From a virus (taxonomy: Duplodnaviria; Caudoviricetes), in the IMG/VR virus record IMGVR_UViG_3300032214_001577, positions 1 to 42,028 of that record: a DNA stretch of 42,028 nucleotides. One strand, 5' to 3'. Within the stretch, counting starts at the first letter, position 1. The number at the start of each line of letters is the position of its first letter. Under the pieces are notes generated by a model, which saw only the letters and a list, made by a program, of their open reading frames with translations, did no database searches and was not told where the DNA came from. This document shows positions 899 through 41,741 of this stretch, piece after piece. Position numbers and translations under genes: made by a program.

Positions 899-899
899 T

Positions 900-16374: not shown

Positions 16375-16390
16375 TTATTTTTGAAAATAA
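16375..16390 (+). promoter_or_regulatory. TTATTTTTGAAAATAA element upstream of the HTH gene
   Basis: Exact copy of 6432-6447; includes TAnnTTTG. Confidence 0.45.
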
Positions 16391-16397
16391 CAAAAGC

Positions 16398-16658: not shown

Positions 16659-16659
16659 T

Positions 16660-17258: not shown

Positions 17259-18011
17259 ATGAAAAACAATTTTAAAGGTGGTATGTCCGCAAATATGACT
17301 GCTTTCGATGTGGCAAAAAAATGGAAAATTAGCCCTATCGAGTTTATGCCCATTCTGGAGAAAGGAACTGAACACGAAATGGAGCATACGGACAATGAAG
17401 ACATCGCCAGAAGAATCGCTCTTGACCACATCGTAGAAAGACTGGATTACTATGACAAACTGGAAAAGATTGAAAAGATGGAAAAAGGTGGAAGGTTTGA
17501 TGACCAAAAACTTTTGAAAGAATATAATGCAAACAAGAGCATCGGTTTTTCGGCAATCGCTCATTTAAAATCAAAAGGCTTAATTCCAAGAGCAGATGGT
17601 CAAAAAAGGAAATCTGAAAAATACATGGAAAAAGGTGGTCGAACAATAGCACAAACTCCTGCACCTGCATCTGACCGAGTTTCTGGAAGTAAAACAAATC
17701 CAAAAGGAAGTGCCAGTGACACATCTTTGGCAAGGTCAATAAAATTCAATGACTCTTTGCTTAAAGCAATTGAAAATAAGGTTAAAGCACACAATGAAGA
17801 ATACCCATCAAAAAAAGTAACAACACCCACTGCAAAAGCAGTGGTGAGAAGGGGTATGGGTGCATATAGCAAATCACACAGACCATTTATTACTGGTGGA
17901 GCGCCAAATTCCAGACAAGCATGGGGTCTTGCAAGGTTAAACAAGTTTTTACTTAAAAAGCGTGGTGTAAAAGTTAAAAGCGCTTACATCCAAGATGATG
18001 ACCTACTCTAA
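17259..18011 (+). CDS. three-module protein: DUF5661-like N domain and DUF5824-like C domain, separated by two MEKGG motifs
   Basis: KGTEHEMEHTD...IALDHI.E..DYYDKL and RRGMGAY..SHRP...AWGLARLNKFL. The DUF names are from recall and unverified. Confidence 0.6.
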   Translation: MKNNFKGGMSANMTAFDVAKKWKISPIEFMPILEKGTEHEMEHTDNEDIARRIALDHIVERLDYYDKLEKIEKMEKGGRFDDQKLLKEYNANKSIGFSAIAHLKSKGLIPRADGQKRKSEKYMEKGGRTIAQTPAPASDRVSGSKTNPKGSASDTSLARSIKFNDSLLKAIENKVKAHNEEYPSKKVTTPTAKAVVRRGMGAYSKSHRPFITGGAPNSRQAWGLARLNKFLLKKRGVKVKSAYIQDDDLL

Positions 18012-18379
18012 TGGCTAAAAAACAAAATTTAGGAGATTGTTACGAAGTTGCTGGAAGGATGGCAATTTTGGGTCTTTCCAAAGCACCGAATGGAGAAAAA
18101 TTCTTGGGTAAACCCATGGTAGTTCATGGAGAAGTTGAAGGTCAGGGTAAAATTAAAGGATTAAGGTATGGACATGCGTGGGTTGAAGACGATGTTTATG
18201 TTTATGATTTCTCTAATGGTAAAAATTTGATGCTATTAAAAGAAGTTTATTATTATCTGGGAAAAATCAACCAAGACAAGCCAAAACTCTACAAATACAC
18301 CTTTCCTGAAGCACGTAAAAAAATGCTGGAAACCGAGGACTACGGCCCGTGGGACTTAATAACCGAATCAGGGTTATAA
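18011..18379 (+). CDS. small transglutaminase/papain-like Cys-His-Asp protein (candidate protease)
   Basis: GDC(10)Y, GH(55)AWVE and YD(66), in the order of the transglutaminase-like triad. Confidence 0.6.
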   Translation: MAKKQNLGDCYEVAGRMAILGLSKAPNGEKFLGKPMVVHGEVEGQGKIKGLRYGHAWVEDDVYVYDFSNGKNLMLLKEVYYYLGKINQDKPKLYKYTFPEARKKMLETEDYGPWDLITESGL

Positions 18380-18383
18380 TTTA

Positions 18384-18391
18384 TATCTTTG
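18384..18391 (+). promoter_or_regulatory. Bacteroidota-type -7 promoter box TATCTTTG
   Basis: Matches TAnnTTTG in the short gap before the ATG at 18406. Confidence 0.5.
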
Positions 18392-18405
18392 TTAAGTATT
18401 ACATT

Positions 18406-20955
18406 ATGAATCAAGTATCTTTCTCAAATATGGATGAAATAGGCACACCAAATAAACCAATTGACTCTTTTAAAAAGGGTGGGGAAATAAAACATATTTC
18501 TGGTAATGCAGGTGGTTATCTCGTAGGTAAAAGACATTCTGAAGGAGGAATAAAGGCAATCAATAAAAGCACGGGTCAGCCATTGGAAATGGAAGGTGGT
18601 GAGGTGGTGATAACCCGAAATGCGGTAAGTAGTGAAGAAAAACATGAATTCGAAGGCGAGATGCTTACGAATCGTGAGATTTTGTCACGAATAAACGAGA
18701 GTGGTGGTGGAGTTTCTTTCGAAGAAGGTGGGGAAGTTTGTCACGTCTGTGATGCCGAGTATAACTACAAGGGCAAAAAGATGAAAGACATCGATATTTT
18801 TAAAGAAATGGCAAAGGGTGGCGAGATTGACGACATTTTGCAAGCCGTTGACGAACTGGATACAGAAGATTTTGAAGCAAGATTTGATGATGAATCTGAT
18901 GCGGTTATGGAAGCGCTAAAAGACATCAACAAAAACTTTAACGGACTTAATTATTGTTTCAAGGGAAGAAAAAACACCCCTTATGAAGACAAGTATTTTT
19001 TCATAACTGAAGGAAGAACTTCTCCAGTAACCATGCTTCAGGTATTTGTTGAAACCCCACAATTATATATTAATATAATTTGGGATGACATCGTAAATAA
19101 TTTTACAGTTTTACCCAAAGATTTTAAAATATATGTTAAACTATTTGACCACATTGCGTACAAGCAAATAGGTAGTTTCAAGGCTTTTACTCTTGGTGAC
19201 CCCACGATGTTAAGGGCTTATTTTTCTGCTGATGACTATAATGTAGACACTTTTGGATGTGTTGTATTGGAGGATGAAAATCCTGAGTTGTTTGAAACTA
19301 ACAACCCAGAAGTAAGTTCAAAAACTACAAATCAAGAAATTTTGGATTACGTAACGTACTGGAAAACACTCTTACCAGAAACATTTACTCCGTTTGATAA
19401 AATAGAAAATAGGTTTGTGGGTTCTAAATTTTTCAGAGCGTATGTAATAATTCATAGGGAAAGTATTTCAAGCCCCATAGAATTGAAGTATTTCATGGTG
19501 TATGCTGGAATGAACCTCAGTCGTCAACCAAAACCAAAAATTATCAGTTTTAATTTAAGAGATGATGAGAAAAGAATTTGGAAAGTTGATAGAAATATTC
19601 CGTTTACAGAATACTTGAAAAATTCTAAAGATTTTTCTAACATGTACAATTTGGATATTGTTATTGGCTATAAAGATTGCTACAACAACTTGGATTTATC
19701 TTATATATTGAAAAATGAAATTCCAATAAGAATAAAAAATACCTCTTATGCAGACAAGCAATGTACTATCACTTATTTATTGGATGGTGATAATGAATTT
19801 GCATTTCAATTTTTGTATGAAAATGAAGTTAAAACAGTATTGATTGATGGATTAGAAGATGCCGAAATGAATAATGTGGTGATTGATTTTGTGGATGTAA
19901 ATACAGAAAAGGAAAGAAAATATATAGAAAGCAGAATAAAAGAACTGGGTTTAAAAATAAAATTGTTTCGTGCTTCTATGACTTTAGAGGAGTTTGGGGC
20001 GGTTCAAAGAGAATTAAGGAAGTATATTAAATTGCTTCAGGATGTGTATTTAAGAGAGAAAAATGCCAATCCACTTGGTTTTTTCGAACGCATGAAAGAT
20101 GCTATAAAATTGGATTTTGGAAACATCAAAGCACAATATCCACCAACAACAAATTTGTCGGTCAATGGACTTCCAAGCCAACTGACTGAACAAGAATGGT
20201 TGACTGTGAGAAGAGAAGATTTCAAAATTTGGTTTGGAGATTGGGAGCAGGCATACTATGACCAAAACTACTCAGGTGTAAGTACAATAATTGATGATGC
20301 AACGAAAGAACCTCTGGCGGTTTATCATGGAACGAATGTAAAGTTCATAGACTGGAAAATTTATGAAAGCAATACGCTTCACTACTTTGCCAAAAAACGT
20401 GAAATGAGCGAATGGTTTGCTAATTCATGGAAGATGGGAGGTAGAGCGGATAAGGCAGGAATAGAAAGCGCCCAAATCAAACAAGGAAATCCATTTCAGG
20501 GAGCATTTTTGTATAGATGCTTTTTGAATATCAAAAACCCAATCGATTTTAGCCCTTTTGGAGTTGAAAAAGTAAGATTGGCAGATTTGATTGCATATTT
20601 GAAAATTAAATATGGTGTAGGTGATTTTGAATTATGGTCTAAAAATGACTATTTCAAAAAAGGGACGGTGACTATGGAGTCTACAATATATACATGGCAA
20701 ATCATTCGTTTATGGCAGAATTTTAACACTTACGTGAGAGAGTTTACACCCTACGATGGATTCATTTTTTATGAGTACATCCCGTCAAAAGCAAACTCTG
20801 GAAACATTGAAGATGCTTCATTATCGTTCTGTGCATTTAGGACAGAACAAATCAAATTTCATGATGCAGTTTCATTTTCAACGGAAGTTGAAGATAGTAG
20901 GTTTAAAGAGGGTGGTGTAGTGAAAAATACTAATAAAACGAGAAAGCGTAAATAA
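18406..20955 (+). CDS. large modular protein with a C-terminal ART-PolyVal-like ADP-ribosyltransferase domain; four xxGG motifs
   Basis: VR..DFK.WFGDWE, EPLAVYHGT, YFA, FLNIKNP, YDG, F..EQIK; motifs FKKGG, FEEGG, MAKGG, FKEGG. Confidence 0.7.
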   Translation: MNQVSFSNMDEIGTPNKPIDSFKKGGEIKHISGNAGGYLVGKRHSEGGIKAINKSTGQPLEMEGGEVVITRNAVSSEEKHEFEGEMLTNREILSRINESGGGVSFEEGGEVCHVCDAEYNYKGKKMKDIDIFKEMAKGGEIDDILQAVDELDTEDFEARFDDESDAVMEALKDINKNFNGLNYCFKGRKNTPYEDKYFFITEGRTSPVTMLQVFVETPQLYINIIWDDIVNNFTVLPKDFKIYVKLFDHIAYKQIGSFKAFTLGDPTMLRAYFSADDYNVDTFGCVVLEDENPELFETNNPEVSSKTTNQEILDYVTYWKTLLPETFTPFDKIENRFVGSKFFRAYVIIHRESISSPIELKYFMVYAGMNLSRQPKPKIISFNLRDDEKRIWKVDRNIPFTEYLKNSKDFSNMYNLDIVIGYKDCYNNLDLSYILKNEIPIRIKNTSYADKQCTITYLLDGDNEFAFQFLYENEVKTVLIDGLEDAEMNNVVIDFVDVNTEKERKYIESRIKELGLKIKLFRASMTLEEFGAVQRELRKYIKLLQDVYLREKNANPLGFFERMKDAIKLDFGNIKAQYPPTTNLSVNGLPSQLTEQEWLTVRREDFKIWFGDWEQAYYDQNYSGVSTIIDDATKEPLAVYHGTNVKFIDWKIYESNTLHYFAKKREMSEWFANSWKMGGRADKAGIESAQIKQGNPFQGAFLYRCFLNIKNPIDFSPFGVEKVRLADLIAYLKIKYGVGDFELWSKNDYFKKGTVTMESTIYTWQIIRLWQNFNTYVREFTPYDGFIFYEYIPSKANSGNIEDASLSFCAFRTEQIKFHDAVSFSTEVEDSRFKEGGVVKNTNKTRKRK

Positions 20956-20956
20956 T

Positions 20957-20964
20957 TATATTTG
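20957..20964 (+). promoter_or_regulatory. Bacteroidota-type -7 box TATATTTG
   Basis: TAnnTTTG in the 16-nt gap before 20972. Confidence 0.45.
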
Positions 20965-20971
20965 TATATTC

Positions 20972-22447
20972 ATGAAACCAAGACCAAAAAATATAAAAAA
21001 GAAAATGAACATCATCGGTGGAGGTATTTCTACCGATATTATAAAAAAAGCGTTGGACAAGGTTAGTGAAATTCAAGCCAATGCTCAAAAAAATGAATTA
21101 ATAACAAAAATTAGTTCTAAAATGGAAACGGCTGGTTTTGTGCCAGTATTTTTAGATGGTAATTTTAAATCAGATTATGTCGATTTTCAAATAGAATTTC
21201 TTAATCCAGCATCATCAGGAATCATTATCAGCGCTAAAAATTTGAAATATAATTTGAGTTTTGTAATAGGATTAAGTTCATTGATTGATATAGATGAAAA
21301 AAACAAAGAGAATATAAAAATCGATGGTTCTATTAATTATAGTTTCAAAAGTGACAATCAAAATATAGATGATTCGGGAGTTATGTTCAATTTAAGTACG
21401 ACTACTTTAAGTACTGCTATGAATCAATTGGAAGCGATTTATGAAAAAATGGCAAAATTGTATAATGAGGAATTGTTGAAAGAGATTCAAAAGGAAGTGA
21501 AAGAAGAGAAAGAGCAGGAAAAACAAAAAGACAAACCTAAAAAAGAAGAGCAGGAAGCCAAAGATGAGCGTGAAAAAAGCGAAGATGAAGGCGATGAAGA
21601 AGATGGCGAGGACGGAGAAGGTGAAGATGGAGAAGATGGAGAGAAGGGAGAAGGAGATGACGAAAATGGCGATGGTGAGGATGGAGATGGCGATGACGGG
21701 GAAGGTGAAGACGGAGAAGAAGGTGAAGACGGAGAAGATGGTGACGGGGAAGGCGAAGATGGTGAAGGCGAGGACGGAGAAGATGGTGACGGGGAAGGCG
21801 AAGATGGTGACGGGGAAGGCGAAGATGGTGACGGGGAAGGCGAAGATGGTGACGGGGAAGGCGAAGGTGAAGACGGAGAGGACGGAGAAGATGGTGATGG
21901 GGAAGGCGATGGAGATGGTGAAGATGGAGAAGACGGAGAAGATGGTGACGGAGAAGGAGATGGTGATGGCGAAGGAGGTGACCTTACCGATGAAGAAATT
22001 GACAGATTGATAAAAAGTATTACACAAACCCAAGGACAGAATCAAAGTGAAGGTGCGGATTTCGAAGACTTTTTAGAAAAGGTAGATAAAGGAGAAATTG
22101 ATAATGACTTTACGGAACATTACAAAGACCCATCCATAACTTCACCACAAATAGTAAATACAAACACAAGTAACCCAAATCCATTTGGTCAAGAACAAGA
22201 ATATGAAGAACCACAAATAACTGGTTCTTTGCAAGCATTGGCAATGTTTAGTAATTTTGCTAACCAAGAAGATTTTTTAAATTCTTTGCAAGGAAGTAAA
22301 ACGACATTGAATGCATTAATCAATGGATTATCCCAAAATGAATTTAACCAAATTAAAACACTATTGGGAAATCCAGAATTAACTAAATTTGACCTTAAAG
22401 CACAAGCAAATCAAGACTTTGATATTATAAACAACACCCAGCCATGA
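20972..22447 (+). CDS. protein with a long acidic E/D/G low-complexity linker
   Basis: About 130 aa of EDGDGEG-type repeats; lies directly upstream of the AAA+ gene. Confidence 0.75.
   Translation: MKPRPKNIKKKMNIIGGGISTDIIKKALDKVSEIQANAQKNELITKISSKMETAGFVPVFLDGNFKSDYVDFQIEFLNPASSGIIISAKNLKYNLSFVIGLSSLIDIDEKNKENIKIDGSINYSFKSDNQNIDDSGVMFNLSTTTLSTAMNQLEAIYEKMAKLYNEELLKEIQKEVKEEKEQEKQKDKPKKEEQEAKDEREKSEDEGDEEDGEDGEGEDGEDGEKGEGDDENGDGEDGDGDDGEGEDGEEGEDGEDGDGEGEDGEGEDGEDGDGEGEDGDGEGEDGDGEGEDGDGEGEGEDGEDGEDGDGEGDGDGEDGEDGEDGDGEGDGDGEGGDLTDEEIDRLIKSITQTQGQNQSEGADFEDFLEKVDKGEIDNDFTEHYKDPSITSPQIVNTNTSNPNPFGQEQEYEEPQITGSLQALAMFSNFANQEDFLNSLQGSKTTLNALINGLSQNEFNQIKTLLGNPELTKFDLKAQANQDFDIINNTQP
21779..21862 (+). 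repeat. 4 perfect tandem copies of the 21-bp unit GAAGATGGTGACGGGGAAGGC (EDGDGEG)
   Basis: Read directly; a fifth copy is at 21734-21754, within a degenerate tract of about 21580-21980. Confidence 0.9.
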
Positions 22448-23820
22448 GCAGAAAACAAGAATTATTAGACTTCATCAATACCCCAAGTACTTCGCCAAGT
22501 ATGGCAGAACTTCAAAAAGATGCAAGAGAACAACTTGAACAATTAGAAAGAGCAGAAGCAAGCGCTAATCCAAGTGTAGATGCCGATATAAATTTTGCCA
22601 TCACAGAATTACGCAAAGCCTTACAAGAAACCAGCAAAGAAAGTTCAATTGACAAAAGAGAAGTCGAAGACATCGTCAATAAAGAATTGAAAAGTTTCAA
22701 AGTTGGAATTAAAAATCTTGACACATCAGTAAAAGATTTGATTTCTACAACTCAAACCATTCAGGTGGTAAACTGGCAAGACGTAAAAGTCATGCTGGAT
22801 GGTAAGGGAAAACCAAGAAGAATTTTTGATGTAATCTTATCGGATTTTGAAGCAGGAAACAATGTTTACTTGTATGGGGGTGCTGGTACTGGTAAAACTT
22901 ATATTGTTGGAGAAATTGCTGATTCCATCAACTATAAACTGATTACAATTAACTGTAACCAATTCACATCACCTTTGGATATTTTGGGTGGTCAAACAAT
23001 TGAAGGTTATCAGGAAGGTCGTTTAACAGAAGCATGGGGTAACTTGTTTATGCCTGAAGTGAATCCTAAAACTGGTCAACCATATTCAGGTGCGCTTTTA
23101 TTGTTGGATGAGTTGCCAAAAATTGACCCAAACACGGCTGGTTTGTTGAATGATGGTTTGTCCAAAATTAAAGACCCTTTGAAGGAAAAAGATGGTAAAA
23201 TTTTCGGGCCGACAATTACAAATGGTAGAGGTAAGGCAATCAATAAAAAGAAAATATTTGTAATTGCAACGGGTAATAGTAAATTGAATGAAGCGGACAA
23301 AGACTACGAAGCAAACTTTAAGCAGGATTTGTCTTTGCAAGACCGATTTGCTGGTTCTACTTATGAATTGATAATTGACCCAGCATACGAATTAAAGAAT
23401 ATCATGAGTGGTGTAAATGTGAATGGTCAGGTGGCTGACTTCGTTTTCATTTTTAACTTTTTATTCAAACTAAGAACTGCCATTCAGGAAAATAACTACT
23501 CATCCAGAGCGTTTGTTTCAACTCGTTCTATGGTTTCTTTCAGAGATACATACATTGCGTATCGTATCAACGAAACTATGGGTGAAAAACAAATTCCAAG
23601 ACCTAAGACATTACAAATTGCAGTACTTTCTTTTATGGATTTGTTTACAGAAGACCAAAGGATTGTTTTATCGCAAGCAGTGGACTTACCACAATTTATG
23701 ACTTTGATAGATGTCAAAAATAAATTACCACTAAGTGATTTGACGACTGACATGGATAAGCAAGAAGCACAAGCGTTAATTCAAGCGTTTGATTTGAAAA
23801 ATGCGAATAAAATTCGTTAA
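22444..23820 (+). CDS. MoxR/CobS/dynein-related AAA+ ATPase
   Basis: Walker A GGAGTGKT, Walker B LLLDE, sensor I ATGN, Arg finger QDRF, sensor II STR; N-terminal coiled coil. Confidence 0.88.
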   Translation: MSRKQELLDFINTPSTSPSMAELQKDAREQLEQLERAEASANPSVDADINFAITELRKALQETSKESSIDKREVEDIVNKELKSFKVGIKNLDTSVKDLISTTQTIQVVNWQDVKVMLDGKGKPRRIFDVILSDFEAGNNVYLYGGAGTGKTYIVGEIADSINYKLITINCNQFTSPLDILGGQTIEGYQEGRLTEAWGNLFMPEVNPKTGQPYSGALLLLDELPKIDPNTAGLLNDGLSKIKDPLKEKDGKIFGPTITNGRGKAINKKKIFVIATGNSKLNEADKDYEANFKQDLSLQDRFAGSTYELIIDPAYELKNIMSGVNVNGQVADFVFIFNFLFKLRTAIQENNYSSRAFVSTRSMVSFRDTYIAYRINETMGEKQIPRPKTLQIAVLSFMDLFTEDQRIVLSQAVDLPQFMTLIDVKNKLPLSDLTTDMDKQEAQALIQAFDLKNANKIR

Positions 23821-25334
23821 TGAGCAAAAAGTACATCATAAGTTATGGCTTTGATGCTGGGAAATTCATCAAAGAAGGCACTGAAATAGCCGAAAGGGAA
23901 AATGTATTTCAAAGCGGTGATGATACTCAAGCCAGAAAAAATAGCAGTTTAGATGATATTGGAGCAAACTGGTGGGGTTATAAGCCAAATGACCCCAGAA
24001 GTTTTAACGAGCAAATGTCTTTAGACAACATACTGATTTCTTTTTTGAATCAAGGAATGCTAAAAAAAGCGGATGATTTGTATGATAAAATATTGAGTAC
24101 TATTGATTTGGGCGGTGATTTAAAACAACAAAGAATCATTTTTACCAGTCAGCCAATTGGAATTTTTTCGTTCGCTCAAGCATCAAAAGGATTAATTCGT
24201 TCTCTGGAATATTATTGTCCATCTGAAAATAGAATAATATCTCCTGATTTGGTTTTTAAAGGTGATATAAACGGCAAAGAATATTTTTTCTTTGAAGGAA
24301 ATAATGATGAAGAAATTTTGGTTGAGCGAAGACAAGAAGGAACAACTTCAATTCTAAATAATTGCCCATTTGCGACTGCCCAGTTAAATTTTGATAGCGG
24401 TATGGTTTTGCCCTATGACAAGGATGGTAAAATCATAAATTTCTATGATAAATATAAACTTAGATATACTTCAACAACGAAAAAAGTTTACCAAGTAAGA
24501 GAAAAAAAAGGTGGAGGATATGCCCCCTATGTTGATTTGTATTGTCCAGTGGGCGGTAATTCGAATTGGACAATGGAAACCATGTTAGTACAAGCACTAC
24601 CTATGATTCTATTATCTCGTGTTTTAGAAAGAGCAGGTGTAAGGACGAGGATTTTTGCGACAAATTTTATGAAAGTAATTGGTGATACAAATTACATGGT
24701 AACTCCAATTTTAGTTAAAGAATATGGAGAACCTTTGGATTTGAACAAGTTGGCTATTTACACATCTGATATAAGACTTTTTCGATACCATTTATTTAAT
24801 TCTTTATTAGGTTGGTTTGTTGAGAATGGAGATTTGAGAAGTAATCATGGAAAGCATAGAATTCTTTCAACTTCTGAAATTTATGCTATCATGCCCCGTG
24901 TAAAAAATTATTATCAATACCTGATGGAAAAAGGAAAAATTCCGCAAAGCAATATTGATAAAGGATTAATGATTTTTGGAGGTACACCAATTGACCTTGA
25001 TTATCCACAACGTGATAAATTAAACTATGAATCAACTCAGAAAAAAATCGTCAATGAATTTTACAGAATCAGTGATTACGTATCTTTAATGATGTCAAAG
25101 AAACCTGATTCTGTAATTAAAAAAATATTTGAGCGTGAGGAGGATAGAAAAGTATCTAAACAAGAAGTCGCTCAAACTTTAAGAAATACAATAACTCAAA
25201 TTTTAGCCCCAATTCGTAGACCAGCAAATCCAACAGAAGACGATTTAATCCTCACTGACTCGGATAAAGATTTTAAGCAACAAGACGAAAAAAGGGCTGA
25301 ACTTTTAGAATTAATTAACCGATATACATCATAA
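23820..25334 (+). CDS. probable degenerate vWA-like partner of the AAA+ ATPase
   Basis: Coupled to the MoxR gene; VDLYCPVGGNSN...LERAGVRTRIF...VKEYGEPLD..RLFR beta/alpha pattern; no canonical DxSxS. Confidence 0.5.
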   Translation: MSKKYIISYGFDAGKFIKEGTEIAERENVFQSGDDTQARKNSSLDDIGANWWGYKPNDPRSFNEQMSLDNILISFLNQGMLKKADDLYDKILSTIDLGGDLKQQRIIFTSQPIGIFSFAQASKGLIRSLEYYCPSENRIISPDLVFKGDINGKEYFFFEGNNDEEILVERRQEGTTSILNNCPFATAQLNFDSGMVLPYDKDGKIINFYDKYKLRYTSTTKKVYQVREKKGGGYAPYVDLYCPVGGNSNWTMETMLVQALPMILLSRVLERAGVRTRIFATNFMKVIGDTNYMVTPILVKEYGEPLDLNKLAIYTSDIRLFRYHLFNSLLGWFVENGDLRSNHGKHRILSTSEIYAIMPRVKNYYQYLMEKGKIPQSNIDKGLMIFGGTPIDLDYPQRDKLNYESTQKKIVNEFYRISDYVSLMMSKKPDSVIKKIFEREEDRKVSKQEVAQTLRNTITQILAPIRRPANPTEDDLILTDSDKDFKQQDEKRAELLELINRYTS

Positions 25335-25336
25335 CC

Positions 25337-27739: not shown

Positions 27740-27755
27740 ATAAAAAATTATATAT

Positions 27756-27763
27756 TAACTTCG
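27756..27763 (+). promoter_or_regulatory. -7 box variant TAACTTCG
   Basis: One mismatch to TAnnTTTG; followed by an A-rich leader and the ATG at 27778. Confidence 0.35.
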
Positions 27764-27777
27764 CAAAAACTAATACA

Positions 27778-30700: not shown

Positions 30701-31584
30701 AAGTTCAGGCTATACTTGCCAACTACGACATGGAGGATAACGATTATGAAACCATGCAAAACCTGAAAGCGGAACTTGAATCTATTGGATACACGATGGA
30801 CTTTGGTTTAGATGCCGAACCATACGACCTGCGTAAAATTGGTCAGGTAGGTAAATCTGAATTTTATGCTAAAGGTGGTATGATGGCTGATGGAGGGATA
30901 ATAAATACAAGAGAATTAAACAAAAAAATTAAAGGTTGGTATATAAAAAATTACCCTACGGATGATTTAGGACAAAAAATAAACGATAAAATCACTTTCA
31001 AGGGATTTTGGGCTTATTTGAGTCAAGGCTACAATGTTTATGATGTTTTAGAAGTATCAGATAGTGTAATAAGAGAAAGGGTCTTTGAAAAATTATCTGA
31101 AATTTATGCGGTTGACTATGATGTAGTTTATAAAATGTGGTTGCGTGGTAATGAGTACGCTGAAGGTGGTGAAGTTGATTTTAATGAAAGAATGGCAAAA
31201 ATGAGGAATGCGAATGACATTCTTGAAATGAAAGTGAAAGGTAAAATCGCTATGGCAGTTGGTATTGACAGAGCGATTAACTTGATGTCCAGAGATTATT
31301 CAATAGACCCAATAGGTATGATTGTAAGCGCAGTTCGTTCGGGTTTATTGTCATTGGATGAAATTAACCAAGATTTGGTTTCTAACGCAGAGTATGTGGC
31401 AGATAGAGTTACCGATGATTACAGAGATAGTGGACAAGGAATTGGCGGTAGTGACATGACTTATTTTACAAAAGAAATGCTGGATGACTCTGGTTATAAA
31501 ACTGGTTTTATCAATAACAGATTGAACCGAGTTGATGAAGATGGAAATGAGTTGGTAATCGACAAATATGAAATGGAATTCTAA
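27778..31584 (+). CDS. xxGG-punctuated modular protein (putative polyprotein), about 14 motifs
   Basis: LAKGG, YAKGG x3, MSRGG, FADGG, YEKGG, MADGG x3, MAYGG, FANGG, YAEGG x2, separating unrelated segments. Confidence 0.75.
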   Translation: MTTKEKYELIDKSQVSEKLLTILQNMEKSSKNFTDEAVNSRVDSALDKIIEGFKAKKPEALRTITEAKKEVKEEKEKAIKKNEGKDFSDKKDTDDKTGLPKKDTLEERKEIIKKESETEKEARERAKKELEKEKEKAKDEIESQIEKLNRLILEDPALRGFNTGTAATGGGKSTPIIDAERKALPRGSRVSKKGWKNQYGASDGGRKYWENRENRSDRKSPEYETGKPYLAKGGNIDSLDERMNFVIAYNYAKDRKVDSDKSFEEFKEEFKRKTPKSAKYSDKVMKATYYALQQNYAKGGNVYSSDDMYEITMVQDGIELDSKLIRARNKGEARMIFEDMYLDKYQDEFGEFEIKIELAKNKMSRGGGIGFKNFGKTKGRFKLTYEDDGEEQSEIWSSLEEATSSAIRYSSPKLGYTNVHIYDETGKEYFFADGGYTESGEKLYEIANNMSDKEFQEAFRNLSEKEKDLYESLLRLGDESKIALATVLNESKKPKYDKLTWDLHRYEKGGEMADGGETEEGKYYVMDAKDGKIVSKGFDTIEEAIVEKFKIFEKTDNFFLTQKKMADGGNVDSSDGDGVLSKYNKKGNEQLVIIENFDDKPYLVYAVYVDGEYDRRIKVKKSNPFLSQNKMAYGGETEDFFANGGSIKDIKIGSKIGFLRPNTGRYEYAEVLSMDDEKIDLVVRHPKRSQLDNYFTETKERIRQFIKQPSEDWKDGRMLVKIKYAKGGVIKAKKISDLNYIEIFEKIPLGIGATFATILPENPEGGKIKYGLIINDIIDGQKPENYFIINLDDKYYSDERKSLKSAIRNPYTYEDKFEAIKEGNHLLVISIEGTRKQGLIDLIYKTYINSRNTNVSMVGETDLPLDYPHRFRNDFNFVVFKGAISDLMSVAERIESSFYFEGAKLYKEPTPYIMRIIWNIPAILDFEDEVKTPATYIPIFEVADEIKPKTSKKYAEGGEVEGVDLFEDYDDQPEEVQAILANYDMEDNDYETMQNLKAELESIGYTMDFGLDAEPYDLRKIGQVGKSEFYAKGGMMADGGIINTRELNKKIKGWYIKNYPTDDLGQKINDKITFKGFWAYLSQGYNVYDVLEVSDSVIRERVFEKLSEIYAVDYDVVYKMWLRGNEYAEGGEVDFNERMAKMRNANDILEMKVKGKIAMAVGIDRAINLMSRDYSIDPIGMIVSAVRSGLLSLDEINQDLVSNAEYVADRVTDDYRDSGQGIGGSDMTYFTKEMLDDSGYKTGFINNRLNRVDEDGNELVIDKYEMEF

Positions 31585-33761
31585 TGAAAAACAACGTCCA
31601 ATTTATCACTGAAGAGCAAGCATATCGCTATATGCCCAATTCATCTATTGAAAAAGATGTTTTGGATAATGTTCGATACACGATTGACAACAACAAATTT
31701 GCTGGCAATTTCTATTCCAGTTCATGGCAGGGTGGTGGCGATGGCTATTTGTATGAATTAGATGACTATGATGGGTATGTTGTGGGTGCGCAAAAACTCA
31801 AAGAGGGTGAGAAAATTTATCGTTATTTTACCAGAAGAAGTGCAGTTTCAGGAATTAAGCCTTTGATTAAAATCAATATTGATAAGGGTTTGTTATATTT
31901 CCTGAAACCAGATGATGAGGATTTAGATTTAATAGAATTTGAAACTAAAGGTATTCCAGTCAGGTACTTAAATATTATTCCAAATGAAAAACAAGAATAT
32001 GCTGAAGGTGGTTATATGGCTGAGGGTGGGTCAGTAAATTCATTTGCGGATTTGACCAAATATGCTCAACAAAAAATAAAGGAATTCCCATTTTTATCTT
32101 CAGATATAGTTGCTTTATGGTCACTCGCTAAAGATGAAATTGCAGACGGGGAATCAGAAATGAACGAAGTTAGTCTTGCTCTGAGGGATATTAATGAATT
32201 AATTGCAGAAAATACTCAAGTTGATGAAACTGGCACTGGTGAAGAAGTTGAAGGTGCTGACTATTATGCGTTGTATCGGGGTGGTCGAGAATGGTATAAT
32301 TTTAAATATTACGAAGATGCTAAAAGCGAATACGATAAAGTAACAAAAGATAAATATGATTCTACATTATATGCATTTAAAAATGGCAAAAGAATTTTAA
32401 TAACGACAAGTGAAATAAAAAATAATAAATACGCACAAGGTGGTCAAATTAAATGGCAAGATGTGTTTACTGGTGACGGAGCATTGGTCATCTCAGAAAA
32501 CAAAATGGGGTATGTTGTAAAACCTTATGGACGTAGATTTCATTTGAGATTCCCCGATGGTTCTGAAAAAACATATTCTGCCGAAGAGTTGGAATTTTAC
32601 AAGGACGAAGAATATGCAGAAGGCGGTATGACAAAAACTACAAAAAACACAAAAAACAACATGATTTTTGATAAAAACGGGGAACGTAGAGTTGACCCTG
32701 AAGCGCTCGAATACATTGAAACTGAGGTTAAAATGTTGCCACAAACAAAGTTCATGCACACCGATACTAATGGCAAATATTCTGCTAAAAGGAAAAAATT
32801 GCATGAAGAAATAATTGGTCATTTTCATGAAGGTAAACCTTGCGTGAATAAAAGACCAGCAGTGGCAATTCTAACTGGTGGAGCGCCTGCTTCTGGTAAA
32901 ACTACTTTTATCAAAAAGTACGTGGATTTAGACCCTGACAAAGTTTATCACGTGGATGCGGATGAGGTACGTGCAATGCTTCCTGAATACAAAGGATGGA
33001 ACGCAAGTCAGACACACTTGGAAACGGCTGATATTGTCAATACTTTGATTGATGAAATCGGTATACCATGTGAACATGACTTGATTTATGATGGAACGAT
33101 GAACAAAGCAACGAAGTATGAAAAAATCGTTGACAAACTTCATAAACTCGGATACAAAGTATTTGTCATATACATTTCTATTCCAGAGCAGGTCAGCAAG
33201 GAGCGAGTAATTGCTCGTTACCAAAAATCGGGACGTTATGTACCTATGGGCGTTATTGAAGAAGTTTACGATAACGGATTGACTGCTTTTGAGAAAGTTG
33301 CTCGTGATATGGCTGATGGCTATATCAGGATTGATGGTATGACTGGCGAGGTTATTGAGCAAGGTGGTATTCCAATGCCAAAAAACATCGAGTACGAAAA
33401 AGGCGGTGAATTGGATGATGATAAGTATAAAAATGCTACTGCGCTGGTTCGTTCAGCAGAAAGATATACTGAAGTTGAAACTGGAGAACCAGTTAAGAAA
33501 GGTATGGGTATGGCACGTGCTTCCAAAAAGGATGGCAAGATGAAATACGATTCAGTAGTTGTATTCCTTAATAATGGCGAACAAGTTGTTTATGACGAAG
33601 ATGAGTTCCCCAAGTTCTTCATGAAAGATGGTGGAGAATTAAGGAGTCAAGATTACTATGATGGATTCCAGATGCAAGTGGTTCAAAAGAAGGGAATTCC
33701 AGATAAAGAAGTTCAAAAAGAAAACACAAAAATGAGATACCGTAAAGGTGGAAAATTATAA
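31584..33761 (+). CDS. xxGG-punctuated modular protein containing a zeta-toxin-like P-loop kinase domain
   Basis: GGAPASGKT, VDADE, IYDGT, R..ARY..SGRYVP; motifs YAEGG x2, MAEGG, YAQGG, YEKGG, MKDGG, YRKGG. Confidence 0.8.
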   Translation: MKNNVQFITEEQAYRYMPNSSIEKDVLDNVRYTIDNNKFAGNFYSSSWQGGGDGYLYELDDYDGYVVGAQKLKEGEKIYRYFTRRSAVSGIKPLIKINIDKGLLYFLKPDDEDLDLIEFETKGIPVRYLNIIPNEKQEYAEGGYMAEGGSVNSFADLTKYAQQKIKEFPFLSSDIVALWSLAKDEIADGESEMNEVSLALRDINELIAENTQVDETGTGEEVEGADYYALYRGGREWYNFKYYEDAKSEYDKVTKDKYDSTLYAFKNGKRILITTSEIKNNKYAQGGQIKWQDVFTGDGALVISENKMGYVVKPYGRRFHLRFPDGSEKTYSAEELEFYKDEEYAEGGMTKTTKNTKNNMIFDKNGERRVDPEALEYIETEVKMLPQTKFMHTDTNGKYSAKRKKLHEEIIGHFHEGKPCVNKRPAVAILTGGAPASGKTTFIKKYVDLDPDKVYHVDADEVRAMLPEYKGWNASQTHLETADIVNTLIDEIGIPCEHDLIYDGTMNKATKYEKIVDKLHKLGYKVFVIYISIPEQVSKERVIARYQKSGRYVPMGVIEEVYDNGLTAFEKVARDMADGYIRIDGMTGEVIEQGGIPMPKNIEYEKGGELDDDKYKNATALVRSAERYTEVETGEPVKKGMGMARASKKDGKMKYDSVVVFLNNGEQVVYDEDEFPKFFMKDGGELRSQDYYDGFQMQVVQKKGIPDKEVQKENTKMRYRKGGKL

Positions 33762-33765
33762 AACT

Positions 33766-34353
33766 ATGGACAAAGAAAAAGTTGAAATAAAGAACTTTCA
33801 CAAAAACATCATGGGGACTTTATCATTTGATATGAAGTTGCCGTCCATGAGAAAGTTTCAGGAATTTATTGTTTATCCAGTATCAAGAGAAGATGCCGAT
33901 AAACCCGTAACAATTCAAAGCGATACCAGGATAGGTGTTATTGACCTTGAAACTGGACGTGGATTAATGAGTCAATCTCACACTGGGGGTGCTTATTTTG
34001 TTCATCTGAGTGTTGATAAGAAGACCATTTTTAAATTGGATGAAACACAACTTGAATTGTTCCGTGAAAAAATGCGTAGCACATCAAGAACTGGTGATGG
34101 AATAATCAAGATGGATAATGAAGGTGCGAGTCTATTTAAAAAAGGTGGTCGTACTGAAGATTATACCATCGACATGGTAAAAAGCGATTTAAAAGTGATG
34201 GAAGAATATGCTTCAAAAATCGCATCTTTGTTGGACAAATTAGGCTATGTTGAACCTTGGATTGCTTCCAAGATTTACATCGCTGGAGAAAACATTGAAA
34301 ACATTAAACATTATCTGGAATACGAAGTTGAAGGCTTCCCTACAAAAAAATAA
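33766..34353 (+). CDS. two-module protein split by FKKGG
   Basis: ATG at 33766; beta-rich N module and helical C module. Confidence 0.65.
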   Translation: MDKEKVEIKNFHKNIMGTLSFDMKLPSMRKFQEFIVYPVSREDADKPVTIQSDTRIGVIDLETGRGLMSQSHTGGAYFVHLSVDKKTIFKLDETQLELFREKMRSTSRTGDGIIKMDNEGASLFKKGGRTEDYTIDMVKSDLKVMEEYASKIASLLDKLGYVEPWIASKIYIAGENIENIKHYLEYEVEGFPTKK

Positions 34354-34359
34354 AATCTG

Positions 34360-37300
34360 ATGAATTACGATAACTATTACAAAAATGGCGGTATGACAAA
34401 AGAAGAGTCTGTTTCCGCAATCGCTCTTAGAATTGGTGCAAGAAAAGAAGCAGTCGCCAAGTTCGTAGAACAAAATAACATTGATACCAACAAACTCAAT
34501 TCCGATTTGAAATCAGGAGAAGTTTATTTCATGGATGTCATCACTGCAATTGTTGGTATGCCCAACAATAAGTATGAGAAAGAAATCGTGAAAAAATATG
34601 GTAGCAAGATGGCTATGGGTGGCAAAACCCAAGGTTACGATGACCGTGAAGACGAAAGACTTGGGATGAAGTATGGTAAGATGTCAGGAAAAGATTTTGT
34701 TGGAAGTCATGAAATGAGGGAACATTCACGTAGGGACGATGCCAGGTTTGAAGAAAGAATGGAAAAGGGGGGTAAACTTTACACTACCCAAATGAATGTT
34801 GGTAGAGCCAAATATGTTATCAATTATCACGATGGTAGCAAAACCCATAAAGATGGAAGTCCGTTCTATGATATTGATATTTTTAGCAATCGGAAAGACT
34901 TTGATAAGGCAGTAAAAAAACTTGAGTCTGAAGGTTACAAATATCGTTATGCAGTTGGTGGCATGATGGCTGATGGTGGCAAAGTTTCTTATGATATTGA
35001 ATATAGAGATGAAGAAGGAGATACCTACGAAGCATCATTTGACACTTTAGAAGATGCAAAAGAGGAAATTAGAAAAATTCGTGAAGAAGGCGGTAGAATT
35101 ACAGAAACTTGGAAATATGTTGATGGAAAGTTCTCAGGAAGATTTAAACATGGTGGCATGATGGCTGATGGTGGTAGAATAAAAGTGGGGACTTTTGATG
35201 AAGCACAATTAAAAAAAGGTGAAGATAAAATTGCCGTTCAAAAATTGCAGAAAGAAAGCGGATTGAATTATGTAGATTCTAAAATCATAAAGAAGGGTGG
35301 AAAAATGTATTTAGATGTTTACCTAATACCAAATGAAGAATACTATAAATCATCAAAATTTGGAAATGGTGGCATGATGGCTGATGGTGGTGAAGTGTAT
35401 TATGTCAGGGATTTTTACCCAAATTATGATGAGGACAAAATCGCAAGTATTTTGAAGTCTATTGGTGCGAAAAAAGTCAGAAAAGCCAAGTTATATGGAT
35501 ACTCAAATCAACCAGATGTTGTTGTTTTTGAAGGTGATAAAAACGAGGCACAAGAGATTTTGGAAAAAGAATTTCCAGATAACTATATTTCAATTTACGA
35601 GAAAGATTGGGGTAGAAAAATGGCTGATGGTGGCGAAACTGAGCGTGATAAAAATGGCATGTTGTATGCTTTACAAGAGCATGTTTCAAGCGGTGAAATA
35701 GCAAACATCACAAACACTTCTAAATATGTGGATATTGATTCAATCAGGAGTAAAGCAATTCAATACTATATGCAAAATGGTGATAAACCATATTCGTATG
35801 CTGAACTTGAGTCTGTATTGAAGAAATTTGACCATACAAAGATGGCTAATGGTGGTAAATTAGAAGCAGGCGTTTATAGAATCGGTAAACCAAAAAGAAT
35901 TAGCGATAATTTATACGAGCAAAAGATTGTGGAAATTTTTGATAACGGAGATATTGCAACTGCCAGTGATTATGGTAGAAAGTTAGGAGATTTCAAATCT
36001 CAAATGTACCCAATAATAAACCAAGAACAATTTGAGGAACAATACAGATACGCTGAAGGCGGTGCTATCGAAGACCAATATGTAGGAAGAACTGCGCAAG
36101 ACATCTGGGATAGTTTGAGTGAACTTCAAAGACAACATTTTATTGGCGACCATGCTATTGAAATAGAAATGTTGAGCGACAAAAATTATGATGACTCGAA
36201 AAACGAATTTCCGAAAGAAATGACGAGAGAATTTGTAAAAAAAGCATATCGCTCTGACTGGGAAGGCTTGGATGAAGTTGTACAAAATAGATTTGCAAAC
36301 CATGTTAGGAAGGGTGAATACGCCAAAGGTGGAATTATTAAAGTTGGTGATAAAGTTCGTTCAAAAATATTTAGTGGCGTTGAAGGTGAAGTTGTTAGTA
36401 AAAAAGGCGATATGCTATTTATTGTAAGGCGCAACGCTTTGCCTAATGGTGATATTCAACACGATGTTTTGAGGATTAATGAAGTAGAAAAATTGGCTAA
36501 AGGTGGTAAAACTGATGATATTGATTACTCCAAACAAACTACGGACGATTTTACTTTAGGCGAAATTGTTTGGGATGTAGATAATGAAAGGTACGGAACG
36601 ATAATCGGGATTTATGATGATGATGGTTATGCTTCAAGTAAATTTGAATTAAGATTAGATTCTGATGGCGTACAACCCACTGAAAATTTGAGAAAAGTTG
36701 GTGATAAAGGTGATAAAGGGACTAAAAAACAATTGGATGAAGCAATCACACAATATGCAAGGTTGGTAAAACTATACGGCAAAGACAACGATTACCCTAA
36801 ACAAATAAAACCAGACGATTCTAAAGACGATGATAAGCCTAAAAACAAATGGGAATACACCGACAAGGATGAAATCGAATATGTAGTTGTTAAAGACAAA
36901 AACGCAAAAGAACTCAAGTTTGATGGTAAAAATGTTTTAAGTGGTGTTCATGACCTTTTAGAAAAAGGCGGTAAACTCACTGAAATCGGTAAATACTATT
37001 CAAAAAATGATGTCGTTTCGGTTGTCGTTAATGGCAAAAATATCTTGGATAAAAACACCGTTTCTGGAGTTTGGATTAAGAAAGATGCTAAACCCATGGC
37101 TGAAGATGTCGCTGACATGAAAATTGGGAAAACCACTTTGAAAAAAGGATTTAACGGATGGGTAGCAAAAACCATGGTTGACAACTTTAAAGGTTTTGAC
37201 TGGGACATCACCACAATTAAGAATTCTCGTGGTGATTTGACTACCACTGCTCAAGGTGGAAAATCGGAAGATAAAGGTGGATACAAAATGTTTACTTTTA

Positions 37301-38025
37301 TGGTATTCCAAGACCCTGCTATTCGATTGAAATCTTCTCGTCCTGCTCGTGTAACAGACAAAGTAGTTTCTGCTCAACACGAAGAAGCAATGAAAGATTT
37401 CAAAGAAAGAAAAGAAGAAATTGCTGAAATGGTTGACGAGATACAAGCCAAGAAAAAAAGTAATGATGGAGCAAAGATAACCTTCAATAAATTGGCTGAT
37501 GGGGGATATGTTGTGAGCAAAGCAGATGAAGATGGATATGTTTACATTTTGGATGCGGATGGCAAAAAGGTTTCCGATAGTAAAATACCAAGTGATATTG
37601 GTTATGGCAAGGTGAAAAATAAATTCGTTGTTAAAAAAGCAAAATATGATACCGAATTAGGCAAAAACGATGCAAATCAAATTGTTGAGCGTATGAATAG
37701 CAAATACGCCAAAGGTGGTGCTATTGGATTCGATGCTCTTGCTAAAAAGGTTGCCAAAAACTACGAAGGCGATAAAGTGAAAAAAGAGTTTCAAGATGAG
37801 TATGGTAAAACCTACGATAAGCAAGAAGCAGAAGAGGTCGGAAAAAAGGTCGCTGGTAAAGTGTATCGTCAACAACAAGCCAAAGGCAAAATGGCAAAAG
37901 GCGGTAAAACCAACAATCGTAGTGAAAACAAAATGACCCAAATTTCAAGAAAAGCCAGTGAGATTCGTAAGGCAGACGAATCATGGAGAGATGCTTTTAA
38001 TAGAGCAAAAGCAATGATTGGCTAA
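34360..38025 (+). CDS. xxGG-punctuated modular protein (putative polyprotein), about 18 motifs
   Basis: YKNGG, MAMGG, MEKGG, YAVGG, FKHGG, FGNGG, MADGG x4, MANGG, YAEGG, YAKGG x2, LAKGG, LEKGG, LADGG, MAKGG. Confidence 0.78.
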   Translation: MNYDNYYKNGGMTKEESVSAIALRIGARKEAVAKFVEQNNIDTNKLNSDLKSGEVYFMDVITAIVGMPNNKYEKEIVKKYGSKMAMGGKTQGYDDREDERLGMKYGKMSGKDFVGSHEMREHSRRDDARFEERMEKGGKLYTTQMNVGRAKYVINYHDGSKTHKDGSPFYDIDIFSNRKDFDKAVKKLESEGYKYRYAVGGMMADGGKVSYDIEYRDEEGDTYEASFDTLEDAKEEIRKIREEGGRITETWKYVDGKFSGRFKHGGMMADGGRIKVGTFDEAQLKKGEDKIAVQKLQKESGLNYVDSKIIKKGGKMYLDVYLIPNEEYYKSSKFGNGGMMADGGEVYYVRDFYPNYDEDKIASILKSIGAKKVRKAKLYGYSNQPDVVVFEGDKNEAQEILEKEFPDNYISIYEKDWGRKMADGGETERDKNGMLYALQEHVSSGEIANITNTSKYVDIDSIRSKAIQYYMQNGDKPYSYAELESVLKKFDHTKMANGGKLEAGVYRIGKPKRISDNLYEQKIVEIFDNGDIATASDYGRKLGDFKSQMYPIINQEQFEEQYRYAEGGAIEDQYVGRTAQDIWDSLSELQRQHFIGDHAIEIEMLSDKNYDDSKNEFPKEMTREFVKKAYRSDWEGLDEVVQNRFANHVRKGEYAKGGIIKVGDKVRSKIFSGVEGEVVSKKGDMLFIVRRNALPNGDIQHDVLRINEVEKLAKGGKTDDIDYSKQTTDDFTLGEIVWDVDNERYGTIIGIYDDDGYASSKFELRLDSDGVQPTENLRKVGDKGDKGTKKQLDEAITQYARLVKLYGKDNDYPKQIKPDDSKDDDKPKNKWEYTDKDEIEYVVVKDKNAKELKFDGKNVLSGVHDLLEKGGKLTEIGKYYSKNDVVSVVVNGKNILDKNTVSGVWIKKDAKPMAEDVADMKIGKTTLKKGFNGWVAKTMVDNFKGFDWDITTIKNSRGDLTTTAQGGKSEDKGGYKMFTFMVFQDPAIRLKSSRPARVTDKVVSAQHEEAMKDFKERKEEIAEMVDEIQAKKKSNDGAKITFNKLADGGYVVSKADEDGYVYILDADGKKVSDSKIPSDIGYGKVKNKFVVKKAKYDTELGKNDANQIVERMNSKYAKGGAIGFDALAKKVAKNYEGDKVKKEFQDEYGKTYDKQEAEEVGKKVAGKVYRQQQAKGKMAKGGKTNNRSENKMTQISRKASEIRKADESWRDAFNRAKAMIG
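34956..35390 (+). repeat. three exact 24-bp in-frame direct repeats TGGTGGCATGATGGCTGATGGTGG (GGMMADGG)
   Basis: Copies at 34956-34979, 35151-35174 and 35367-35390; a variant is at about 30874-30896. Confidence 0.9.
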
Positions 38026-38063
38026 AAAAAAATAAGTAAATTGCAAACTCAAAAATAGACAAC

Positions 38064-38666
38064 ATGAAAAAAATTCAAGATGTATTGGACGAAGTGGATT
38101 TGGATGTCAGTGAACTTCCAGAACCCACACAAAGAAGGATTCAAACCTACGCTTCTTTAGAAAAGCAGTTAATCGCTGCCAAATTGGAATTAGAAGCGTT
38201 GGATGAGCCTGATGCTGAAAAGCAACAAACCTATGAGGACGCTATCACGTACTTTAATGACTATGAAGCGGATGTTATCGAAAGCATTCAATCTTATGCA
38301 GTTCGTTTAAACAACGAATTGCAAGCGAAAGCCATGAAAGAAAGACGTGAGAGAGAACAAAAGGAAAAAGAAAACGAGAAGCGAATTCAAGCAAGAAAAG
38401 AAGCAGAGCAAAGAGAAAACGAAGCCAAAGAAAAAGCCAGAAAAGAACAAGAACAGAAAGTGCAAAAGGCTAAAGAAGATTTGGAAAAAGCAAATGCTAA
38501 AGCCCAAGAAGAAGCCTTGAAAGAAAAGGAAGAAGCCGAAGAAAGGGCGAGATTGGAAGAAGAAGCCAGAAAACCTAAAAAGAAATCTGGTGGCTTGGGT
38601 TGGCTACTTGCTGGACTCGGCATAGTAGCAGCAGTCGTCACTCTCGGAGCAACAAAAGACAAGTAA
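38064..38666 (+). CDS. coiled-coil protein with a C-terminal membrane anchor
   Basis: Long E/K/R/A helix, then KKKSGG-LGWLLAGLGIVAAVVTLG. Confidence 0.75.
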   Translation: MKKIQDVLDEVDLDVSELPEPTQRRIQTYASLEKQLIAAKLELEALDEPDAEKQQTYEDAITYFNDYEADVIESIQSYAVRLNNELQAKAMKERREREQKEKENEKRIQARKEAEQRENEAKEKARKEQEQKVQKAKEDLEKANAKAQEEALKEKEEAEERARLEEEARKPKKKSGGLGWLLAGLGIVAAVVTLGATKDK

Positions 38667-41381: not shown

Positions 41382-41741
41382 ATGGAAAATACACAAAACG
41401 CAGGAGGGTCTGCGACACCTGATTTATCGGCATCTGTTAATGCTTCCAAATTGGCAAACCCAGCATCCGTTGTAACACCAACACCATCAGCAGGTGAAAT
41501 GAATGAGGGTGGTGATATTGCTCCTGAAACCACCAACGATGGAAGTCATGATTGGGGTCAATGGATAGCAATCGGTATCATCTCTTTAACAATCGTTTCT
41601 TTGGTGATGCAAATTGTGGTGAACAGAAGAAGTTTGGTAAGATTAAATCAAGAAGATAGGGATTTGAGAGAAAGGGTGAATAAACTCGAATTGAAGTTTG
41701 ATAACTTTGAGAATACACAACCAATCAGACGTGCCGCCTAA
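41382..41741 (+). CDS. single-TM protein with an S/T/P-rich N-terminus, one MNEGG motif and a C-terminal coiled coil
   Basis: SATPDLSAS...VVTPTPSA; TM WIAIGIISLTIVSLVMQIVV. Confidence 0.7.
   Translation: MENTQNAGGSATPDLSASVNASKLANPASVVTPTPSAGEMNEGGDIAPETTNDGSHDWGQWIAIGIISLTIVSLVMQIVVNRRSLVRLNQEDRDLRERVNKLELKFDNFENTQPIRRAA

Follow-up and report, generated by a model that had tools for sequence, protein, structure and literature searches.

The window, a 42-kb fragment (42,028 nucleotides, 35% GC) of the virus record IMGVR_UViG_3300032214_001577, carries all of its large genes on the + strand. Six of these, clustered between 17,259 and 38,025, encode proteins in which a short peptide, loosely [YMFL]xxGG and here called the motif, recurs at the seams between unrelated modules; five of them are chains that we number as polyproteins 1 to 5. 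The features that bear on the argument are these:

17259..18011, + strand: polyprotein 1 (250 aa), with a DUF5661 module (17307-17477), a 49-aa module and a DUF5824-like module (17640-18008); motifs at 17478-17492 and 17625-17639, + strand
18011..18379, + strand: stand-alone papain/transglutaminase-like protein (122 aa) with Cys10, His55 and Asp66; no motif
18406..20955, + strand: polyprotein 2 (849 aa from its likely start), motifs at 18469, 18718, 18808 and 20902
18484-18732, + strand: module F1 (83 residues), within polyprotein 2
20972..27739, + strand: four motif-less genes between polyproteins 2 and 3
27778..31584, + strand: polyprotein 3 (1268 aa), 14 motifs
31584..33761, + strand: polyprotein 4 (725 aa), 7 strong motifs
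33766..34353, + strand: two-module protein with one motif (34135-34149)
34360..38025, + strand: polyprotein 5 (1221 aa), 18 motifs and three stacked MMADGG spacers
38858-39163: DUF5754-like region
41382..41741, + strand: small protein with a hydrophobic segment and a weak motif (41499-41513) in its N-terminal arm

The initial annotation of this DNA had counted the motif by hand, arriving at about 45 copies (2, 4, 14, 7, 1 and 18 in the six genes). The loose pattern matched 3, 4, 14, 8, 1 and 18 times in the open reading frames (ORFs) 17259, 18349, 27778, 31584, 33748 and 34360, the likely starts being 18406 for ORF 18349 and 33766 for ORF 33748. This amounts to 48 matches against 5.34 expected from 500 shuffles, the highest of which gave 12. 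A profile of the motif family, derived in part from the sites of these same six ORFs, fits 46 of the 48; the other two score below 7, and their removal returns exactly the hand count. The stricter consensus proposed at that time, [YMFL][AEK][KEDN]GG, occurs 38 times where 0.44 are expected. No enrichment was found in the 16-kb enzyme island (10-16860; 27 ORFs, 5682 aa), from which the motif had been described as essentially absent: 7 loose matches compare with 3.3 expected and a shuffle maximum of 11, and the strict consensus occurs once. The remaining 14 ORFs from 17 kb on are at background level (4 loose matches, 3.3 expected). Stacked six-residue units and motifs near protein termini are both present in the window ORFs, as reported, and the weak copy in the membrane protein at 41382, which lies outside the range first described, has stronger counterparts in seven relatives. 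The segments between motifs are indeed mutually unrelated (0 similar pairs at E<1e-3 among 44 window segments of at least 30 aa); their size, given as mostly about 30-260 aa, has to be widened for one segment of 698 aa.

A search with the 1221-aa polyprotein 5 returned four loci. One relative, the 79.7-kb G001, holds collinear homologues of 45 of the 47 window ORFs, and searches with its ATPase and with the jelly-roll protein, both described below, returned 14 and 61 loci; 13 relatives were examined whole or in large part. Fifty proteins were gathered (49 with at least three loose matches and the window's 33748 protein) and 10 were removed, fibre proteins with repeats of xxGGG and a methylase among them, so that 431 motif sites in 40 proteins from 14 genomes remained. 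The full consensus over the family is K-[YMF]-A-[KDN]-G-G-x-[VITLM]; residue frequencies, in per cent, at the 425 sites whose context is complete are K28-[Y33 M28 F27 L9]-[A56 E15 K11]-[K33 D21 N12]-G-G-x-[V21 I20 T18 L17 M12]. A literature search, which did not extend to the supplements of the cited papers, brought up no publication on the motif or on this virus group; passages of PMC5894146 and PMC10172136, and a search for terms in PMC3482391, describe neither. We conclude that the seam motif is real, lineage-wide and apparently undescribed.

The motif delimits independent, swappable modules. Divided at their motifs, the chains of the 14 genomes give 348 modules of at least 35 aa in 213 families, of which 154 are singletons; module orders and host genes differ. 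When the motifs were masked, alignments between genomes had 746 ends, of which 365 fall no further than 10 aa from a motif (132 expected); with decoy masks the counts were 54 among 665 ends and 56 among 672, where about 107 are expected. Motifs inside folded domains had been named as evidence that would speak against such a role; matches to Pfam show avoidance instead, with 2 motifs inside 34 Pfam stretches against 26.8 expected, both within DUF5824 matches. The stronger statement, that recognisable domains end exactly at a motif, holds in so far as the borders lie near one, but the Pfam matches stop shortly before: from match end to motif end the distance is 5 aa for DUF5661, 20 aa for ART-PolyVal and 32 aa for the zeta-like domain.

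The presence or absence of modules at motif boundaries, which the initial annotation had proposed to look for in relatives, is seen in protein and DNA comparisons alike. The G001 orthologue of polyprotein 1 is longer, at 1209 aa, because motif boundaries in it hold additional modules, ART-PolyVal and GNAT among them; the counterpart of polyprotein 5 in the same genome has 1828 aa and 24 motifs. The N-terminal module of polyprotein 3 belongs to a family found in 13 of the 14 genomes, the first module of the 33766 protein recurs within a polyprotein of G014, and the contig G017:C9 has the same polyprotein layout. At the DNA level, blocks of homology between the window and G001 mostly begin or end within 15 nt of a motif's end. 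Contigs from 4 of 20 listed runs were compared with 27700-38100: in these lake contigs 25 of 30 joint ends lie no more than 15 nt from a motif, a condition that 16% of the region satisfies, although several joints, being flanked by short sides, count for less. The joints include in-frame losses of single modules (198 nt) with 9-10 shared bases; the 66-aa modules 28480-28677 and 29485-29682 of polyprotein 3 are cleanly missing from lake contigs. In the locus L003 the cassette 37507-37719 is replaced between flanks that are 99-100% identical. Whole cassettes are exchanged, with crossovers in the motif codons.

Codon usage bears on the level at which the motif is maintained. Codons of the second Gly match the background and those of the first are the ones used in other GG pairs, whereas the Ala codon GCT is enriched (0.69 vs 0.38). 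Since the Gly codons vary freely, selection appears to act on the peptide rather than on the codons; the idea that it maintains a recombination site in the DNA was rejected, the repeats being degenerate and the Gly codons following the background. The motif very probably carries a protein-level signal. The 15 nt that encode it likely serve in addition as microhomology for annealing-type recombination, in which case each exchange would be in frame and pre-tagged.

The domain scan took in the window and 28 proteins of relatives. Named modules are ART-PolyVal (in polyprotein 2, at about 20308-20856, with a basic 12-residue tail beyond the last motif), a zeta-toxin-like kinase (32628-33407 in polyprotein 4, whose last motif, 33738-33752, is followed by two residues), GNAT, RelA/SpoT, DUF5661, DUF5824, DUF2958 and DUF3140; no Pfam peptidase match was found inside the scanned chains. 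The DUF5661, DUF5824-like and DUF5754-like families co-occur in the window, and we take all three (DUF5661, DUF5824 and DUF5754) to have been defined from large eukaryotic DNA viruses. ART-PolyVal, zeta-like kinase, GNAT and RelA/SpoT are listed for polyvalent proteins (PMC5512222). Because the chains contain such polyvalent-type modules and are encoded upstream of the particle genes, they are likely virion cargo, as far as their sequences and position can tell. That they would release dozens of effectors, as first suggested, goes further: many modules are small and without assigned function.

Among the motif-less genes at 20972-27739 are those for an acidic Gly/Asp/Glu-repeat protein, a MoxR-like AAA ATPase (22444-23820), a DUF7192 protein (23820-25334, a match below cut-off) and an 800-aa protein. 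A MoxR-like ATPase also lies between polyprotein genes in G001, G002, G003 and G017; it or its neighbours could possibly act as a loading chaperone.

The 18011 protein has a conserved Cys-His-Asp set and a papain-like model (best Z 4.7, rmsd 4.0, 102 aligned). Homologues were found in only 3 of 17 virus records (the window, G001 and G014), in G014 as a motif-bounded module. As an obligatory protease it was ruled out, being missing from most motif-bearing relatives; it is likely a cargo module and not a general cutter.

The particle genes lie past the end of the window. A contig 98.7% identical to the last 3.2 kb of the window runs on into a gene for a P-loop ATPase, and in G001, where some 6 kb separates the polyprotein genes from those for the ATPase and the jelly-roll protein downstream, the order is ATPase, a 230-aa single jelly-roll candidate, many small hydrophobic proteins and an HExxH protein. 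The ATPase accompanies the capsid gene in 60 of 61 loci and conserves Walker A, Walker B, an Arg-His pair and a Gln; it has no library match and is, from its motifs, a putative A32-like ATPase. The model of the jelly-roll candidate (pLDDT 68) has a beta-sandwich at residues 55-196 behind a low-confidence arm. Its best hit has a Z of 6.3 (rmsd 4.1, 114 aligned), a generic likeness, and the hits include viral jelly rolls, all below Z 8; Foldseek matched no solved structure at E<=0.001, its matches to viral models were of low TM throughout, and an atlas lead pointed instead to Hcp (0.87). A shorter paralogue lies 10-30 kb away in six genomes (G002 58883, G007 84117, G009 29960, G010 13359, G011 15181, G015 48295), and G012 has two full-length copies in tandem (35917 and 36642).

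The HExxH protein (in G001 at 64876-65664) is present in 54 of the 61 capsid-gene loci, the 7 without it ending within about 3 kb after the capsid gene, and its family comprises 557 clusters at E<=1e-10. We label it a zincin because the HExxH and E-x-x-A-D residues are conserved; it has no match in PDB, Pfam, PHROGs, NCBIfam or the catalogued phages (50,697 records). The particle block is rich in a second motif, F-x-[NGSD]-A-x-G: 239 of its proteins yield 28 copies against 1.4 expected, and the 40 polyproteins have two. In the form F-x-[NG]-A-[DN]-G the jelly-roll protein usually has two copies on its N-terminal arm, and several small proteins have one each (L009:1043-1735; G001 from 60043 onward). 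The two motifs have an A-x-G core in common.

Three records have inverted terminal repeats, and the virus has no sequence match to catalogued phages. Terminase_6N was found in 0 of 5 complete genomes (control positive in 5 of 14), and the 72 of 111 G003 ORFs scanned with PHROGs include no terminase, portal or HK97 capsid, portal and capsid families not having been searched separately. The virus, an uncultured one from fresh water, is likely tailless and membrane-containing, with a genome of 70-130 kb. Its host is likely a member of the Bacteroidota because Shine-Dalgarno-like sites are few (6 of 47 starts), TAnnTTTG, which we take to be a promoter element, occurs in several intergenic gaps, and matches of F1, considered next, fall mostly in Bacteroidota phages; a sigma-70 promoter scan stayed at background level. 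Provirus context was set aside as a guide to the host: G017:C9, a virus contig of 132 kb that was binned with Sediminibacterium, is free, with no flanking host genes in the parts examined, and the three other hits in genomes lie on short contigs whose bins belong to unrelated taxa. Binning is therefore weak evidence of the host. At the ends of G017:C9 (L141, L147) an 11-nt unit is repeated in inverted orientation. Two further regions may be recorded here: in the window, some 20 glycosyltransferase, methyltransferase, acetyltransferase and aminotransferase genes form one block (900-16358), which likely serves surface glycan modification of the particle; and G006 has a 4410-aa low-complexity, fibre-like ORF (L038:6172-19404), with a similar very long region in G003.

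Module F1 occurs once per record in 16 of 18 records, the two that lack it being 50% and 62% complete, and was found in 1174 database proteins. It conserves a His and the stretch Glu-x-Glu-Gly-Gly-Glu, and 120 of 120 F1-bearing database proteins have at least three motifs (799 motifs, 125 expected). F1 is homologous to the C-terminal domain of tape-measure proteins of Bacteroidota phages: tblastn against all phage records gave a best hit of E 2e-4, the F1 profile matched 4 of 4 Bacteroidota tape-measure-type proteins (E 3.5e-6 to 9e-4 at Z=1000), and 34 of the 40 phage records matched are Bacteroidota phages. Around the matched domain (n=4) the motif is strong on both sides in two proteins, present on the far side only in one and lacking in one. 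F1 had no match among PDB sequences or in Pfam, and an atlas lead to crAss_CARG1 (0.87) was not confirmed. F1 is a candidate reader of the motif.

Two tape-measure proteins are known to be cut. T5 pb2 is reported to be cleaved after R1127 (PMC10038345), which in the sequence record reads R/AEGGMM (the slash marking the cut) and is the best-scoring motif site of the protein. Lambda gpH is reported to lose about 14 kDa from a glycine-rich C-terminal region, the catalyst and the site being stated as unknown (PMC12617516); motif-like sites stand at 732 and 777, about 120 and 75 aa from the end, with a score that 2 of 200 shuffles reach.

Our preferred reading, to which we give a probability of about 0.4, is that the peptide is a dock-and-cut seam that doubles as recombination microhomology. 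What is known comes from sequences; the packaging, the cutting, the enzyme and the position of the cut we infer. The chains would be beads on a string, swappable modules joined by a conserved peptide that is recognised during loading of the chains into what is likely a tailless particle. A virus-encoded protease would then cut the peptide and free the modules for delivery into the host. The best candidate for the enzyme is the conserved zincin (HExxH) encoded among the particle genes, and by analogy with T5 pb2 a cut before the Ala (x/A-x-G-G) would be more likely than one after GG. One enzyme could read both motifs because they share the A-x-G core. A tag that targets first and is removed later would fit evidence for cutting and evidence for docking alike, as with the propeptides of T4 and SPN3US.

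Several observations weigh against this reading. The last motif lies within 15 aa of the end in 13 of 40 polyproteins (5.7 expected), and in 10 of these 13 the tail has 2-4 residues and retains the P2' residue, so that cutting there would free nothing. Basic single-domain proteins likewise end in the motif and two residues. Five of the eight listed single-module ORFs are stand-alone 18011-type and DUF5824-like ORFs without the motif, which weakens a strict loading-tag role; of the other three, two zeta ORFs keep it and one 520-aa ORF is without it. The motif is also found in tailed phages, which lack this zincin. The score of the T5 site, 7.4, is equalled by 31 of 200 shuffles, with Arg in place of the aromatic residue or Met of the motif, and the F1 profile matches neither T5 pb2 nor lambda gpH. 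Finally, one strain breakpoint (36841, in L001 and L002) falls in the middle of a module.

A different layout is seen in six unrelated ORFs of G009, G014 and G017 (at L145:10557-12766, L113:9396-12657 and L129:9655-10590), which end in the motif followed by the same 16-residue tail, closing with D-Y-[LV]-[KR]-[ML]-[FL]. This arrangement fits a removable tag; the tail is possibly membrane-binding, and shorter Y-V-R-[IL] tails in other genomes may be its remnants. Among the basic proteins mentioned above is one of about 340 aa (L030:11981-13024, with homologues in G002, G007, G015 and G017), encoded on the other strand and far from the cargo cluster, possibly a DNA-binding core or terminal protein.

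The terminal motifs point to docking as well, and an uncut docking tag is the strongest of the alternatives, though still unlikely. Here a unit of 8 residues, which probably forms a short hairpin that turns at Gly-Gly, would bind scaffold, a membrane protein or itself, and whole multivalent chains would be packed into the core. Short tails that retain a hydrophobic P2', the 32 spacers of at most 7 aa (mostly MMAxGG), the copy on the arm of the small membrane protein and the description of the crAss001 cargo protein gp45 without cleavage (in passages of PMC10172136) all agree with it. The motif-less stand-alone modules within the same gene cluster count against docking too, and the T5 cut at a look-alike site does so as well; moreover, the same peptide is found in unrelated particle types, for which one common docking surface is unlikely.

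Self-processing is a more doubtful proposition. F1, derived from the tape-measure C-terminal domain, would read or cut the motif in trans at all seams, leaving the zincin only the motif of the capsid arm. The near-constant single copy of F1, absent only from the two incomplete records, its conserved His and acidic diglycine stretch, the motif-flanked homologue in tape-measure proteins and the cutting mechanism of lambda gpH stated as unknown (PMC12617516) would all suit such a role. Yet the two proteins known to be cut are the ones that the F1 profile fails to match, 83 residues are few for a protease, and a catalytic role would be a prediction from conserved residues. We consider no more probable a broader origin in which a tape-measure-derived element, peptide plus F1, was freed from the tail and became a universal seam, serving as recombination site and as loading and cutting signal in a large tailless lineage and crAss-like phages alike, with F1 as the catalyst of tape-measure cleavage.

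Improbable, in our estimate, is a motif that serves as hinge and recombination seam and nothing more. As a flexible joint it would let each module fold or unfold on its own during ejection, and homology-driven insertion of cassettes would account for its prevalence. Crossovers within motif codons, the enriched GCT and a RecT-like gene in G003 would be expected of it; but a hinge needs neither fixed P5, P4 and P2' residues nor terminal copies, and both Gly are fixed, partly by definition of the pattern, while their codons vary. Least probable is the cut after GG to which the initial annotation had inclined, made by an adenain- or pS273R-like cysteine protease or by the 18011 papain-fold protein: the GG is invariant, ASFV pS273R is reported to cut Gly-Gly/X in core polyproteins (PMC10308890) and the conserved Cys-His-Asp protein is encoded between two polyprotein genes, but the test for an adenain-type site failed because P4 is mostly Ala (56%) and is M/I/L in 15 of 431 sites, all relatives retrieved carry the motif while an 18011 homologue was found in 3 of 17 records, and searches of five complete relatives for proteases of families C5, C48 and C57 gave no match (the control being positive for C48 only).

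Should the peptide indeed signal loading or cutting, a simple rule would show from sequence which cargo an entire virus lineage brings into its host, and large hypothetical proteins would fall into testable parts, the 213 module families, most of them unnamed. Cargo maturation in a likely tailless virus would be linked to tape-measure cleavage in tailed phages, and the question of the tape-measure catalyst would become testable with small recombinant pieces. One sequence acting both as protein signal and as recombination seam would be an economical route to fast cassette evolution.

The closest parallel is with polyvalent proteins of phages and conjugative elements, which are likewise long chains of unrelated domains near virion genes and for which processing by a zincin-like peptidase has been proposed (Iyer et al. 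2017, PMC5512222). The window polyproteins have the testable features of this class: at least two unrelated domains, catalogued ones among them, and proximity to virion genes. In polyvalent proteins, however, the zincin (MPTase) domain, which about 36% of members possess, as a rule forms part of the chain itself (PMC5512222), whereas here the HExxH protein is stand-alone and belongs to the particle block. The main text of that paper gives no common junction motif ('linker' and 'glycine' occur 0 times), and chains of 10-29 very small modules in a likely tailless virus set the present system apart.

The C-terminal processing of T5 pb2 and lambda gpH involves proteins with similar peptide sites (R/AEGGMM in T5, two in lambda), and the tape-measure domain of Bacteroidota siphophages is a homologue of F1 bracketed by the same peptide; there, one cut is made in a tail ruler, whereas here dozens of seams lie in likely cargo and a tail is probably lacking. 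ASFV pp220 and pp62 with pS273R, and adenovirus with its protease AVP, likewise have Gly-Gly sites in internal virion precursors of jelly-roll viruses that use a maturation protease. Those enzymes are cysteine proteases, of which none was found in the five complete relatives searched for families C5, C48 and C57; AVP is reported to require M/I/L at P4 (PMC4246237), and ASFV has few sites that yield fixed structural proteins. In T4 and SPN3US one short motif, the A-x-E of the prohead protease, is also common to many internal proteins with several sites per chain, and the propeptides are reported to target proteins to the core (PMC10052503); these are, however, propeptides of fixed proteins, removed in tailed phages, and they do not delimit exchangeable cassettes. 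The particle itself recalls the Sphaerolipoviridae and their kin, single jelly-roll membrane viruses, in that the relatives encode a putative packaging ATPase, a candidate single jelly-roll protein and many small proteins of hydrophobic character, and have inverted repeats at the genome termini; the present viruses differ from them in genomes of 70-130 kb, a likely Bacteroidota host, long fibres and cargo polyproteins.

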